IMG/VR virus record: IMGVR_UViG_3300027833_000011
DNA: 64,000 nucleotides
Source of the DNA: a virus
Taxonomy: Duplodnaviria; Caudoviricetes
Reading direction: 5' to 3' (one strand)
Of this stretch, positions 1 to 4,986 are shown piece by piece. Made by a program: the position numbers and the translations under genes. Under the pieces are notes generated by a model that searched no databases, was not told the origin of the DNA, and saw only the letters and a list, made by a program, of their open reading frames with translations. Position 1 is the first letter of the stretch. Each line of letters starts with the position of its first letter.

Positions 1-114
1 TATTATCCCGATTCGACTACAGAGGCAGAAGAAACATTATTTCTTAGTTTATTAACAGACTGGATTTACGAAAATAATTAAAAATAACCCTTTCATTTCT
101 CTTGGTGTTAAAGG

Positions 115-318
115 TTATTTAACTTCAATAAGTTCAGGTGTTTGAAACCAAAAACGAACAGGGTACTGCTCACCTATATTGCTTGAAACTTCCCATTTGG
201 CAGTTGGTATATCATAAATACCTATACCCGTCACCCAAGTATCATTAAAGTTATTCCACATTTTCACAATACACTCAAAGGTGTTTGATGGTAGTTCATT
301 TTTTACATCTTTCCACAT
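115..318 (-). CDS. hypothetical protein
   Basis: 67-aa ORF bounded by junction motifs. Confidence 0.7.
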   Translation of the reverse strand: MWKDVKNELPSNTFECIVKMWNNFNDTWVTGIGIYDIPTAKWEVSSNIGEQYPVRFWFQTPELIEVK

Positions 319-321
319 AAT

Positions 322-543
322 CTATTTCTCTTTTGTTTTAAAGATTTTGTCCCAACATTTCTCAATGCTACGCTCAAGGTTTATTCTGCAATCTCGCTCA
401 TACTCCCAAGCAAACTCACACATTGCCTCTTTCTCTTTCTCAAGCATTGATATAACTTTTTCTTCAATCAATCTTGCTGTGTCTAAATCCATTGGTAGGG
501 TTACTCTAACCCATTCCAACATTTCTTGCATTGGTGTTTTCAT
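322..543 (-). CDS. hypothetical protein ending FKTKEK
   Basis: 73-aa ORF; its ATG is supplied by the junction motif. Confidence 0.75.
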   Translation of the reverse strand: MKTPMQEMLEWVRVTLPMDLDTARLIEEKVISMLEKEKEAMCEFAWEYERDCRINLERSIEKCWDKIFKTKEK

Positions 544-562
544 TTCTCTTTGGTGTTAAAGG

Positions 563-937
563 TTATTTCTCCTCCAACTTAATATATGATTCTAAACATT
601 TTACCATATACTTAAACGTTGAGGGTTTCATCAAGTATTTGTATTTATATGCTTCTATCAATCCAACCATCCATGCATCCAACTCAACATGGAAGATGCT
701 ATATTCTGTGTGGTGAAAATCTTCCATATTAGGGCTAATGCAGTGTCCAAGTTCATGGAAGAATGATGCAATTTCTTCATCCTTGTTATCATATACACCA
801 ACCCATATTTCATCTCTGCCAGCACAAGCTGATTCGTTTAAGTAAGCATCGGGCCCATTTGCATTCCACCACTTATCACCGCGTTCTACTTTGTAAACTG
901 TAATCCCGTATCGAAGACCTATCTCTTGATAATTCAT
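563..937 (-). CDS. small HExxH (zincin-like) protein
   Basis: FFHELGH followed by a downstream E (ELDAW). Confidence 0.6.
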   Translation of the reverse strand: MNYQEIGLRYGITVYKVERGDKWWNANGPDAYLNESACAGRDEIWVGVYDNKDEEIASFFHELGHCISPNMEDFHHTEYSIFHVELDAWMVGLIEAYKYKYLMKPSTFKYMVKCLESYIKLEEK

Positions 938-1359
938 TTCTCTTTGGTGTTAAAGGTTTTTGTTTGTTGTACCATATGCAAAGCAAGTGTCATAAACCGA
1001 TTCACTTGTTCTTGGTTTGGTAGTTCTTCCTCCCACTGAATTTCACGGATGGATTCAAATGTATCACACACACTACAAGAGCCATAAGCCACTTCAGTGA
1101 ATATGTAGTCCGTTAGTGAGGGTTGGTAAGAACCATTACAAAGTACAAATATCTGAGTGCCTTGATAGTCTCCATCATCAATGCATTGGTATCTGTTCCA
1201 ATCCCACTCGTAAGCACCATAACTATCTAATGGTTCGGTAATCACTAAACCAAATAGTTTCTTATAAATATCCTCATACGATGAAGGCATATTATTAGTT
1301 AGCCATTCTTCAAGAATATACTTACGCTCTTCCCATTGTTTTACAAATTCTAAAATCAT
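934..1359 (-). CDS. hypothetical protein ending FNTKEK
   Basis: 141-aa ORF with ATGA overlaps at both ends. Confidence 0.8.
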   Translation of the reverse strand: MILEFVKQWEERKYILEEWLTNNMPSSYEDIYKKLFGLVITEPLDSYGAYEWDWNRYQCIDDGDYQGTQIFVLCNGSYQPSLTDYIFTEVAYGSCSVCDTFESIREIQWEEELPNQEQVNRFMTLALHMVQQTKTFNTKEK

Positions 1360-1538
1360 TTCTCTTTGGTGTTAGATGTTATTATAAATGGCGGTTCATA
1401 TGGATTCCTAGTTTCATTTGGATAATAAGGATTATAAGGGTAATATGTTACCTGATTTTGTGAAAGTAGTATTACGGCCTCTTCAGCAGTAATATGACTG
1501 TCCTCTAATAATCTTTGAACTATTTCTGATTTACTCAT
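1356..1538 (-). CDS. hypothetical protein ending SNTKEK
   Basis: 60-aa ORF with an ATGA overlap at its 3' end; its ATG is supplied by the junction motif. Confidence 0.75.
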   Translation of the reverse strand: MSKSEIVQRLLEDSHITAEEAVILLSQNQVTYYPYNPYYPNETRNPYEPPFIITSNTKEK

Positions 1539-1550
1539 CTCTCTTTGGTG

Positions 1551-2129
1551 TTAAAGTTTTCTGTGAAGTTCCATTTCGTAACTAATACGTCTTACCCATT
1601 TTTCATCATATAATGGAGTTAACCCAATACCTTTGTATTGTATTTCCTGTACAAAATCTAATTCACTTTCAGGGGTATTAATATAAGAAACTGTATACGT
1701 AAAATCAGTTATTTTAGGAACCTCTTTAGAATTAAACCTATGGTCATGTATAAACCCTTTTTTCTCATCGAACGTAACTAAGATATTATGATTTAAGTCT
1801 GTTGGGAAACAATCAAAATTATTGGAATCGTTATAAATGTCATCGACATCTTCAACTTCTGAAATATCAAAATTAAGGACCTCAACACCGTCAGAATTTT
1901 CAACAGTGATAGTGGTTTTTTTTTCGTAATCTAACGGTTTTGAAACGGACCATATATCTCTATTTGTTAGGTCTGAACCGATTACATCCTCAATACTATC
2001 ACCAATAACATTAATATCATCAATGTCCATTTCATCCATATAATCATATATGGTATCCACTTCGTCATCGGTCAAACTATAAGCCGACGAAACTACTTCT
2101 CTACCGTAAATTCTAACTCTGTAATCCAT
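1551..2129 (-). CDS. hypothetical acidic protein, paralog of 10635-11210
   Basis: Similar N-terminus (YxVxIxG..EVV), central DEKxG and C-terminal Y-x-G/D-x-x-L. Confidence 0.75.
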   Translation of the reverse strand: MDYRVRIYGREVVSSAYSLTDDEVDTIYDYMDEMDIDDINVIGDSIEDVIGSDLTNRDIWSVSKPLDYEKKTTITVENSDGVEVLNFDISEVEDVDDIYNDSNNFDCFPTDLNHNILVTFDEKKGFIHDHRFNSKEVPKITDFTYTVSYINTPESELDFVQEIQYKGIGLTPLYDEKWVRRISYEMELHRKL

Positions 2130-2178
2130 TTATTTATTGTTTGTTATTAGGCTAATATAATTAAAAAGTTAACACCAC

Positions 2179-2568
2179 CTATTTTAAATTGTATTTTTCT
2201 TTAACACGTTGACTGATAGGTATTGCTTCACCCTGTTCATCTATCCTAACAAACTTAATATTAGTAGCTAAAATTATTGCTTGTCTCCCATCATATACGT
2301 TGTGACTCCTAGCTTCAACCTTCAGTGTTACCGAAGTTCGACCAATTTGTTCTACATCACCATAAATTTTAAGTAGATGTCCTTCTTTCGCTGGTTTCTT
2401 AAACACACATTCATCAATAAGAACTGTAACCATTCTTGGTGTGTCACATATTTGAGATGCGAACGCAGCACCTGCAGCATCTACCCATGCTAATAATTTA
2501 CCTCCAAATAAGTTTCCGTGAAATCCTAAGTCTGATTTCTTAACGGGGTGTGTTGATATTAATTCCAT
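2179..2568 (-). CDS. acyl-CoA thioesterase, hotdog fold (YciA-like)
   Basis: DLGFHGNLFGGKLLAWVDAAG; GRTSVTLKVE; FVRIDEQG. Confidence 0.9.
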   Translation of the reverse strand: MELISTHPVKKSDLGFHGNLFGGKLLAWVDAAGAAFASQICDTPRMVTVLIDECVFKKPAKEGHLLKIYGDVEQIGRTSVTLKVEARSHNVYDGRQAIILATNIKFVRIDEQGEAIPISQRVKEKYNLK

Positions 2569-2658
2569 TGAACAAATATACTACAAAGACGAGATTCTTT
2601 CAATAGTAATATTGTTTATTTCTTTAAAAAACCATATATTTGTAAAAAGATTAAAGTA

Positions 2659-2907
2659 ATGATTAGAGAATGGAACGATAGTATCATATTTGAGTTTGAT
2701 AACGGATACCGTGTAAGTTTTAAATATGTCCGTAGTCATAGTGTTGCGGTACCAACAAGAGTCAAACCTGAAGTTATAGGACCTAAAAGCCAATACCTAA
2801 CTTCTAATTTTGTCGAAATAAATAAGACATATAATTCAAATGAATTGTCTAAACTTTTAGAGGTTGTTAGGAACCTTGATAAAAACCAAGAAATTAATAT
2901 ATTATAA
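2659..2907 (+). CDS. hypothetical protein
   Basis: 82-aa ORF, first of a tightly packed plus-strand run. Confidence 0.6.
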   Translation: MIREWNDSIIFEFDNGYRVSFKYVRSHSVAVPTRVKPEVIGPKSQYLTSNFVEINKTYNSNELSKLLEVVRNLDKNQEINIL

Positions 2908-2908
2908 T

Positions 2909-3157
2909 ATGGAAGATAACAAAACACAATTTTCAATGTTTCAGGACAAAGTAAAATTTGACGACCCTGTAGAGTTAAAAGAGTATATAAGAAATGGAGA
3001 CGGACCTGTAATTATACAATTCTTAGTGAGTATTTTAGAAACCTCAAATAAGAATGGTTCATTCTCTATCGCAGAATCGGTCATTATGTCAGAAGTTTTA
3101 GAAAGAGCATCTGCACTATTGGCGTTAATCACAACAAAACAAAATAAAGATGAATAA
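2909..3157 (+). CDS. hypothetical protein
   Basis: Start reassigned to the ATG at 2909, right after the upstream stop. Confidence 0.6.
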   Translation: MEDNKTQFSMFQDKVKFDDPVELKEYIRNGDGPVIIQFLVSILETSNKNGSFSIAESVIMSEVLERASALLALITTKQNKDE

Positions 3158-3272
3158 AGATAAGAAAAGTTTTAGTAAGAAAGCCGGTAATTTAGCACTA
3201 ATAGGTTTAGGTTTATACCTATTCAAAACATTAGGGGATAAACTAGTTAAAACCTCTAACAATAATGAGTAA
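3150..3272 (+). CDS. 40-aa membrane peptide MNKDKKSFSKKAGNLALIGLGLYLFKTLGDKLVKTSNNNE
   Basis: Translated by hand; overlaps both neighbours by 8 nt; basic N-terminus then a hydrophobic stretch. Confidence 0.6.
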   Translation: MNKDKKSFSKKAGNLALIGLGLYLFKTLGDKLVKTSNNNE

Positions 3273-3777: not shown

Positions 3778-4986
3778 ATGGCATCTAAGGTAATTAAATT
3801 GACAGAGTCAGACCTTAAACTTATTGTGAGTAATATTTTAAAGGAACAACAAGAAAAAGTGTATAGTGATTATGACACTAAATATGATTATAAAGTGTCT
3901 AAAGGTAATTGGGTTGCGAGTAAAAAAGGTGAAAATAAATGGTTCTCCCTTTCAAAGTATCCTAAATCAATTATTAAATTAGATAGTGCATATCCTAAGG
4001 CACGTAAATCTATATCTGACAAAACATCTATTTCAAAAGATACATCTATTTCAAAAGATAAACCCACTAACAATAGTGTTTTTAAATCAAAGGAAGAGGG
4101 TGATGTATTTAGAGGATGGATGAATAAATATTACCCCAAAACCTCAAAAAAGTTACAGTTAGACATTACAGGTAAGTTCGATAATAGTTATATTAGAAAG
4201 GCGTTAAACAGTAAAGTTAAACGTAAAGATGGTAGTATAACTACCTTTGGGGTGTTATATGCTGAAAAACACTTAAAAAAGACTGACCCTTCTTCATTTG
4301 ACAGAGTCTTAGACCTAATAGGTTGGAATGAAGATAAAGAATCGATTAAGAAGGATAATAACTTTATTTTAACACAACAAATAGATAAGACTAAAGTAGC
4401 TGCAGATACTATTAAGGTTAATAATATATCACAATCTAAAAAAGTGTCCGACATTATGAGTTACGATAAAGATGATTGTGCCACTTTTGTTAATGACTTT
4501 ACTACAACAGTAGGGACCGTCGGTGATGCGTGGTTATCACATGACATAGACGCAGCCGGTAAAAGAGTACACTCAATTTATACCAAAATTGATAACAACG
4601 ATGTTAAAAAATATAAGGACTTATATCAAAGGTTATTAAAGGGTGAATCCGTTGTGTCAGATATTAAATCATTCAACGAGGAACTACTACAAAAAGGCCC
4701 TAAACCAACAGACTTAAAACTTAATGATATTGTTGGTATTTACTACGAACCTTCAACAAACCATGAGAAAGCGTTTAAAAACGCGGGTAATGATTATTTC
4801 GTGGATGGTGACCCTAAACAACCTGGTACAGTTTTAAAAGGTGGTAGAGGATTCTCATTCAATACTCACGTAGGTATTGTAGGTGCATTTAAAAACGGAA
4901 CACCTATAGTCTTCCATAATGTGCACGGTACAATATATTCGGAACCGGCAAATAAGTTATCCATTACTTGGGTAAAAAGAACATAG
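3778..4986 (+). CDS. putative virion-associated NlpC/P60/CHAP-like amidase
   Basis: N-terminal KVIKLTESDL...ILKEQ tag; C-terminal DCATFV ... HVGIV ... IVFHN (Cys-His-His arrangement). Confidence 0.6.
   Translation: MASKVIKLTESDLKLIVSNILKEQQEKVYSDYDTKYDYKVSKGNWVASKKGENKWFSLSKYPKSIIKLDSAYPKARKSISDKTSISKDTSISKDKPTNNSVFKSKEEGDVFRGWMNKYYPKTSKKLQLDITGKFDNSYIRKALNSKVKRKDGSITTFGVLYAEKHLKKTDPSSFDRVLDLIGWNEDKESIKKDNNFILTQQIDKTKVAADTIKVNNISQSKKVSDIMSYDKDDCATFVNDFTTTVGTVGDAWLSHDIDAAGKRVHSIYTKIDNNDVKKYKDLYQRLLKGESVVSDIKSFNEELLQKGPKPTDLKLNDIVGIYYEPSTNHEKAFKNAGNDYFVDGDPKQPGTVLKGGRGFSFNTHVGIVGAFKNGTPIVFHNVHGTIYSEPANKLSITWVKRT

Follow-up and report, generated by a model that had tools for sequence, protein, structure and literature searches.

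In T4-type phages, small genes may be preceded by promoter-early stem-loops (PeSLs), composite elements made up of a sigma-70-like early promoter and a terminator stem-loop, with a Shine-Dalgarno sequence behind them (Arbiol et al. 2010, PMC2839356; Comeau et al. 2014, PMC4122927). In cluster K mycobacteriophages, start-associated sequences (SAS) of 13 bp, with an AGGAG Shine-Dalgarno core, occur in 11-19 copies over half of the genome (Pope et al. 2011, PMC3203893). Here we report on a different element, which joins small genes on the minus strand of the viral record IMGVR_UViG_3300027833_000011; "the window" refers to the 64,000-nucleotide (nt) stretch of this record, at its full length. The initial annotation, made from the letters alone, had noted a 22-bp motif at six consecutive gene junctions of the window and proposed that it may delimit single-gene cassettes, as in an integron but without the attC palindrome. 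Our analyses suggest, with a probability of approximately 0.6, that this motif is a portable translational stop-start joint (hereafter "the joint") that doubles as a short homology for recombination.

Six copies of the motif, all in the same direction (two exact and four variant), coincide with six gene junctions at positions 91-1560 of the window. On the minus strand, the 22-mer CTTTAACACCAAAGAGAAATGA was found without mismatches at 540-561 and 934-955, with one mismatch at 1535-1556 and with two mismatches at 1356-1377; the copy at 93-117 has one base deleted, and the copy at 322-348 is degenerate, with ATAG instead of ATGA and the next ATG located 5 nt further on. No match to CTTTAACACCAAAGAGAAATGA was observed in 100 shuffled sequences (chance expectation 0), which confirms that the motif is real. 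As read from positions 1-2400 and the list of open reading frames (ORFs), the minus-strand operon consists of a thioesterase gene and a gene for a protein of 192 amino acids (aa), followed by small genes for 60, 141, 124, 73 and 67 aa; the six ORFs at the junctions are mutually unrelated. The motif's internal TAA closes the 192-aa ORF, the 124-aa and 67-aa ORFs have their own TAA directly before the motif, and the 60-, 141- and 73-aa ORFs run through it, with C-termini reading NTKEK or KTKEK. In five of the six copies the downstream ATG is supplied by the motif, although the last of these opens a 14-codon ORF only. This reading of the ORFs agrees with the frames as initially annotated (three ORFs stopping before or inside the motif, three ending in (N/K)TKEK, and five of six start codons taken from the motif), and the claim that the motif is conserved independently of reading frame was borne out.

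Alignment of 225 copies indicated that the conserved element is longer than the 22 bp first described, comprising approximately 27 nt (AAACCTTTAACACCAAAGAGAAATGAAA) with sharp edges and the consensus rAAACCTTTAACACCAAAGAGAAATGAaa. The contigs analyzed here were collected by means of an exact 21-mer core; the 225-copy alignment, the set of 243 motif-led ORFs and the gene families described below were drawn from the at least 120 matches listed. Two of the frames through the element are closed, one by the TAA in cTTTAAc and the second by the TGA of ATGA, and the third is open. Among the 139 cassettes with another joint behind them, 64 use the TGA of ATGA as their stop codon and 33 use the internal TAA, and a stop codon of their own directly before the element was found in only about 4 of the 139. 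ORFs opened by the motif ATG have a median length of 61 aa, as compared to 18.5 aa for random ATGs in the same loci. The built-in start and the stop-start overlap that the initial annotation had proposed are thus present, and this layout points to coupled translation. Predicted RNA folds at the six window junctions were no better than those of shuffled sequences (minimum free energy, -0.5 to -4.5 kcal/mol; z, -0.95 to +1.3), and no dyad symmetry or inverted repeat was found in the site, where conservation is confined to 27 asymmetric nt. A sigma-70-type scan of the array returned 11 sites as compared to 14.0 expected, none of them at the motif copies, and no match to the Bacteroidota -33/-7 pattern (TTTG...TAnnTTTG) was found in window 1-2900. 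Similarly, the array scan found no terminators at the motif copies, and an Rfam search of window 1-3000 yielded no match at E values up to 1. As the element shows no hairpin, promoter or terminator, and provides stops in two frames as well as the next ATG, we conclude that it is an intercistronic stop-start joint inside a polycistron.

Cassettes are shuffled between contigs. The 243 motif-led ORFs of at least 25 aa fell into 118 families with differing neighbours and permuted orders (e.g., F4-F11-F17 in contig L042 and F4-F17-F11 in L122). When all loci were compared against each other by blastn, the starts of similarity clustered at -25 to -21 and the ends at 0 to +9 from the ATG, i.e., at the two edges of the joint. 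For each of the five window cassettes, the nearest DNA relative lies in another contig than for the other four (68-92% identity), and in L080 the window's first cassette (60 aa) is directly followed by its fourth (73 aa). Rare joint variants at or before position -12 agree between junctions with the same upstream family, and rare variants at or after -6 agree between junctions with the same downstream family, while positions -11 to -7 track neither neighbour. This switch of linkage between -12 and -6 indicates that the exchange point is located inside the joint and is not arbitrary near gene ends. Overall, the proposal that the motif bounds single-gene cassettes is supported by the families, the blastn edges, the linkage switch and the metagenome joints described below; a fixed gene order without breakpoints at the motif, which would have spoken against it, was not observed.

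The nearest record, G001, shares 87% identity with window 1563-3272 and 80% with window 1-83, and has 12 nt (G001:C1:87437-87448) where window 84-1562 has 1,479 nt. The block present only in the window includes the first and the last joint in full and is delimited by their outer edges; G001 has no motif copy, and the 12 nt at its empty site are unrelated. Since the first joint provides the stop of the 192-aa gene, the last residues of the 192-aa protein differ from those in G001. The five window cassettes represent a strain-variable island at the 3' end of the backbone operon. A search with the 192-aa protein found no other relatives at this locus, and a search with the flank pattern returned only the record of G001 itself and one unrelated context (L131). 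In contig L117, a homologue of the 192-aa gene (27% identity) is not followed by a joint, and the array of this contig is located 9 kb away.

Natural variants of the locus were read from assembled contigs of public marine runs aligned to window 1-3200. These contigs break at motif copies. In three DNA metagenomes from three studies, position 91 is joined to 933 via 12 common motif letters and three cassettes are gone (in run X2, this joint has 91 nt on its shorter side); other copy-to-copy joints connect 103 to 538, 565/567 to 934, and 560 to 941. Depth over the cassettes at 100-960 was up to approximately 100 times that of the flanks, which indicates that the same water also holds other, more abundant phages with these cassettes. 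Among whole IMG/VR contigs, 21 of 60 end within 200 nt of a motif copy as compared to about 3 expected, consistent with assembly graphs that branch at the arrays. In an RNA library (metatranscriptome X15), contigs of the cassettes at 100-960 reached a word depth of up to approximately 18,000, and none covered the flanks; these cassettes are probably derived from other abundant phages (or from DNA in the library) and provide no evidence of transcription or RNA ends at this locus. In all four runs, including the RNA library, contigs covering window 128-232 join back 105 nt inside the 67-aa cassette, which suggests a duplicated or rearranged form of this cassette in other phages.

A scan of other phages, as the initial annotation had proposed, found the exact 21-mer core in more than 120 IMG/VR viral contigs among the matches listed. 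The same 21-mer had 7 matches in approximately 185,000 prokaryote genomes, all of them in contigs of metagenome-assembled genomes (mostly Flavobacteriaceae, Flavobacteriales or Saprospiraceae bins), and was absent from 50,697 cultured phage records. Motif-bearing records classified as complete or near-complete by CheckV include some of 59-62 kb (G011 and G014) and others of 116-118 kb (G007 and G008), and a further motif-bearing record of 212 kb was estimated by CheckV to be 76% complete. Many arrays are located in the replication/recombination region of their contig: a family of RecE-like PDDEXK exonucleases was found in 43 motif-bearing contigs, usually approximately 1 kb upstream of the array, genes for a ParB-like nuclease, a RusA-like resolvase and the large terminase subunit occur downstream of arrays, and in L080 the genes immediately before the array encode an Erf-like annealase and an exonuclease of this RecE-like family. 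Eleven small genes follow those for NinB, a DnaA-like protein and replication in the cultured Tenacibaculum phage Gundel_1 (Pachyviridae), where the A-rich junctions are only loosely motif-like. The arrays of two records span both record ends (G014, the record of L062, and G009, the record of L045), and G014 is classed with direct terminal repeats; in these phages, the point at which an assembly is opened tends to fall inside the array. Grouping of the contigs by common backbone genes was uninformative, with single linkage merging nearly everything.

Bacteroidota do not use Shine-Dalgarno pairing, and upstream of 796 other ORF starts in the same contigs only a weak A-richness was observed. Ribosome profiling and reporter assays in F. 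johnsoniae (PMC6847099) have identified A at -3, -6, -12 and -13 as positive determinants of translation; the motif, which has G at -3 and C at -12, departs from this optimum. Pairing of the motif with Flavobacteriales 16S rRNA was not special, either for the best duplex (-13.9 kcal/mol as compared to -12.9 +/- 2.0 for shuffled sequences) or for the 3' tail of 16S rRNA (-7.5 as compared to -6.7 +/- 2.1). The ten records checked, among them the complete or near-complete records of 59-62 kb and 116-118 kb and the 212-kb record, contain one small array each, with one to five motif copies on a single strand; the motif is not a general signal of these phages. As had been initially suggested, a plain ribosome-binding site does not explain the motif.

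At the mRNA level, the joint would end the upstream small gene at the TAA of cTTTAAc or at the TGA of ATGA and would offer the next ATG in an unstructured, A-rich context, such that unrelated small genes may be translated as one coupled polycistron. At the DNA level, the 27 nt represent the only sequence common to otherwise unrelated cassettes, and recombination between copies, either within a genome or between co-infecting phages, could delete, insert or swap whole genes, each of which would keep a working start and stop after the exchange. This exchange most likely depends on homology, with Erf/RecE-type enzymes of the phage or enzymes of the host performing it, and would itself keep the motif copies alike. 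The initial annotation had looked to a tyrosine or serine recombinase; however, no matches to PF00589 (tyrosine) or PF00239 (serine) were found in ten motif-bearing records, four of which are at least 97% complete, and the window ORFs that were scanned in the vicinity of the array contained no domain of either type. Based on the lack of such matches in the ten records and on the lack of dyad symmetry in the site, a phage-encoded integrase is unlikely, and homologous recombination on the common 27 nt is most likely as the simpler mechanism. The Erf/RecE-type genes beside many arrays, the 12-nt overlaps within joints, and a continuum of 0-7 mismatches in 26 nt among copies that were not used for contig retrieval fit homology-dependent exchange between short repeats followed by decay.

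A number of observations weigh against a stop-start joint that recombines by simple homology. Recombination from motif to motif should have left one copy at the G001 site, so the block came or went by another route. The joint is under tighter constraint than the adjoining coding sequence, which could reflect a specific binding partner, and the retrieval of contigs by an exact 21-mer inflates its apparent conservation. No correlation was found between the perfection of the motif and the spread of the cassette family (rho = -0.07; P = 0.26), recombination genes were not found in those parts of the window that were scanned, and the crossover may be fixed near -8 to -6. Finally, circles and crossover points do not show in assembled contigs, from which the recombination is inferred here.

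It appears unlikely that the motif is only a translation signal (i.e., an enhancer, a reinitiation element or an operator for a host or phage RNA-binding factor, comparable to the SAS of cluster K mycobacteriophages) and that cassettes turn over at gene boundaries for ordinary reasons, with the motif retained simply for its necessity. Such a signal would be consistent with the invariant ATG and near-invariant ATGA, with an element that reaches from approximately -22 to +5 in unstructured RNA, with the use of the joint's stop codons by 70% of upstream cassettes and with its stronger conservation relative to the adjoining coding sequence; in Gundel_1, an array of small genes is likewise found in a comparable setting, and its A-rich junctions loosely resemble the motif. 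These features have to be set against a motif that lies off the F. johnsoniae optimum (PMC6847099), does not pair specially with Flavobacteriales 16S rRNA, and is confined to one small array per genome instead of preceding other genes. Moreover, no factor common to all lineages was found, and the linkage switch as well as the natural deletion joints fall inside the motif rather than at random near gene ends.

A site-specific recombination site, used by an unrecognized phage or host recombinase to move integron-like cassettes, would account for single, co-oriented and promoterless genes, and also for a block missing from G001 whose two ends coincide with the outer edges of the first copy and the last, with no copy left; the linkage switch (-12 to -6) and the 12-nt overlap (-8 to +4) would both fit one fixed crossover near -8 to -6. 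We nevertheless regard this explanation as very unlikely, given the negative recombinase searches in the ten records, a site with no inverted repeat and no foldable strand, the lack of a recurrent attI-like platform gene beside the arrays, and the presence of the same arrays in phages of very different size and gene content. The diversity of gene content among these phages also argues against a single phage-specific polymerase and hence against the least probable of the explanations weighed here, i.e., a transcription or RNA-processing signal such as a promoter for a phage RNA polymerase or sigma factor with near-leaderless mRNAs, a boxA-like antitermination site or an endoribonuclease site. 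A sharp-edged, asymmetric element of approximately 27 nt does have the size typical of promoters of single-subunit RNA polymerases, and a weakly sigma-factor-like gene is present in some motif-bearing contigs; however, the motif matches neither the sigma-70 nor the Bacteroidota -33/-7 consensus nor any Rfam family, occurs in one array per genome with no copies before other operons, and includes the ATG, while upstream ORFs read through it. The sigma-factor-like gene encodes a 245-aa protein in L021 (positions 3800-4537, plus strand; weak match to the RNA polymerase sigma-factor family phrog_1740, E = 3e-8) and recurs in 11 motif-bearing contigs. The joint core CTTTAACA is identical to the core of E. 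coli rrn and lambda boxA; this match is a lead only, and a literature search on the string found no useful source. A Flavobacteriales rRNA operon (L134:1418-1429) carries CGTTTAACAACG approximately 83 nt upstream of the 16S gene, which may be a coincidence in AT-rich DNA.

The individual features of the array, all on the minus strand, were located as follows at full joint length. Joint copy 1 (1533-1560; one mismatch in the 22-mer) ends the 192-aa backbone gene with its TAA, starts cassette 1 with its ATG at 1538-1536, and forms the left edge of the block that G001 is without. Cassette 1 (1356-1538; 60 aa) has NTKEK as its last residues, stops at the TGA of the joint that follows and is most closely related, at 76% DNA identity, to a cassette in L080. 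It is followed by copy 2 (1354-1381; two mismatches), with an ATGA stop-start overlap, and by cassette 2 (934-1359; 141 aa), which also ends in NTKEK, matches phrog_12588 (function unknown) and has its nearest DNA relative in L108 (68%). Copy 3 (932-959) is exact, and natural variants fuse it to the terminal copy, skipping 841 bp. Cassette 3 (563-937; 124 aa), with its own TAA before the next joint, has its nearest DNA relative in L022 (92% over 119 nt); its protein contains an HExxH motif (FFHELGHC) and shows a weak match to the phage metalloprotease family phrog_87 (E = 0.001). Behind the exact copy 4 (538-565), cassette 4 (322-543; 73 aa) represents the commonest family, F0, which accounts for 38 of the 243 ORFs listed, and is 83-91% identical to its copies in L011, L121, L082 and L056. 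Copy 5 (322-348) is the degenerate copy with ATAG for ATGA; the next gene, cassette 5 (115-318; 67 aa), begins at the ATG at 318-316 and thus is not led by a motif ATG (L072, 86% over 132 nt). The terminal copy 6 (91-117), which has the one-base deletion and an ATG that opens the 14-codon ORF, forms the right edge of the block missing in G001. Searches against Pfam and PHROGs gave no firm assignment of function for the cassette proteins.

The backbone genes upstream (1551-2568, minus strand) have the same direction and comprise a 4HBT-family thioesterase (2179-2568) and the 192-aa protein (1551-2129); our scans found no promoter- or terminator-like site between these genes and the array. At the DNA level, the thioesterase gene shares 78% identity with its counterpart in Flavobacterium phage vB_FspM_immuto_2-6A and 71% with contig L016; it is a conserved auxiliary gene of large flavobacterial phages.

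Small early genes are the usual place of host-takeover and anti-defence functions in phages, and little is understood of the way in which they pass from phage to phage. One short joint marks such small genes in more than 120 uncultured marine phage contigs (among the matches listed) of widely differing genome sizes, and the population data show that small genes come and go at this joint. The joint could serve as a handle by which primers or k-mer searches may retrieve the entire pool of mobile cassettes from viromes, much as attC primers are used with integrons, and it represents a testable case of translational gene linkage in Bacteroidota. A more far-reaching possibility, which we consider quite unlikely, is that the 27-nt joint is a dedicated exchange site, read either by an unknown enzyme or by the translation machinery of marine Flavobacteriia, and that there is one community-wide cassette pool. 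If this were true, unrelated phages, ranging from approximately 60 kb to jumbo size, would draw on a common accessory-gene pool, and the arrays would correspond, on the viral side, to the integron cassette metagenome, but with no integrase.

Among known systems, the PeSLs of T4-type phages resemble the joint in that a short conserved regulatory sequence precedes small genes of unknown function in plastic regions, in that indels and replacements between related phages have their breakpoints inside the element, and in that the exchange is thought to be homologous. Neighbouring PeSLs can exchange with each other to give mini-circles. Conversely, the joint has no early promoter, stem-loop or Shine-Dalgarno sequence (our scans found neither a promoter nor a stem-loop at the copies); it is a 27-nt stop-start overlap inside a polycistron and spans phages of very different genome size instead of one family. 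The SAS of cluster K mycobacteriophages, like the joint, is asymmetric, has one orientation, is located near the ATG of non-structural genes of different families (the joint includes the ATG) and sometimes contains the upstream stop; the SAS is absent from the host genome, as the 21-mer core is nearly absent from prokaryote genomes. However, the SAS consensus GGGATAGGAGCCC with its Shine-Dalgarno core was not found in the joint, the sequence of which differs, and the joint measures 27 nt, is confined to one small array per genome and shows clear shuffling, whereas the SAS has not been described as a recombination joint.

As in integrons, the cassettes studied here are co-oriented, promoterless, mostly single-gene units that vary between close relatives. 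On the other hand, the joint arrays have no IntI, no attI and no attC palindrome that folds as a single strand, and the repeat itself belongs to the coding sequence and the translation signal. The joint array is thus not an integron: of the integron-like arrangement that had been proposed, the shuffled cassettes and the site without a foldable palindrome were found, while the integron mechanism was not, with no tyrosine or serine recombinase in the ten records. The ATGA overlaps in the nin region of lambdoid phages and in other phage early operons provide another likeness, with dense small genes after replication and recombination genes and with stop-start coupling; the eleven small genes of Gundel_1 likewise lie behind its replication genes. 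Ordinary overlaps share only 4 nt, whereas the joint keeps 27 nt across unrelated genes and phages. No paper containing the motif string was found, and literature searches covering motifs of flavobacterial phages and phage bS21 yielded no relevant result. The joint and its breadth are new to the searchable literature, while recombination at conserved regulatory joints is already known from the T4 PeSLs; the advance is therefore not in the principle but in the breadth of this joint and in the different build of the element.

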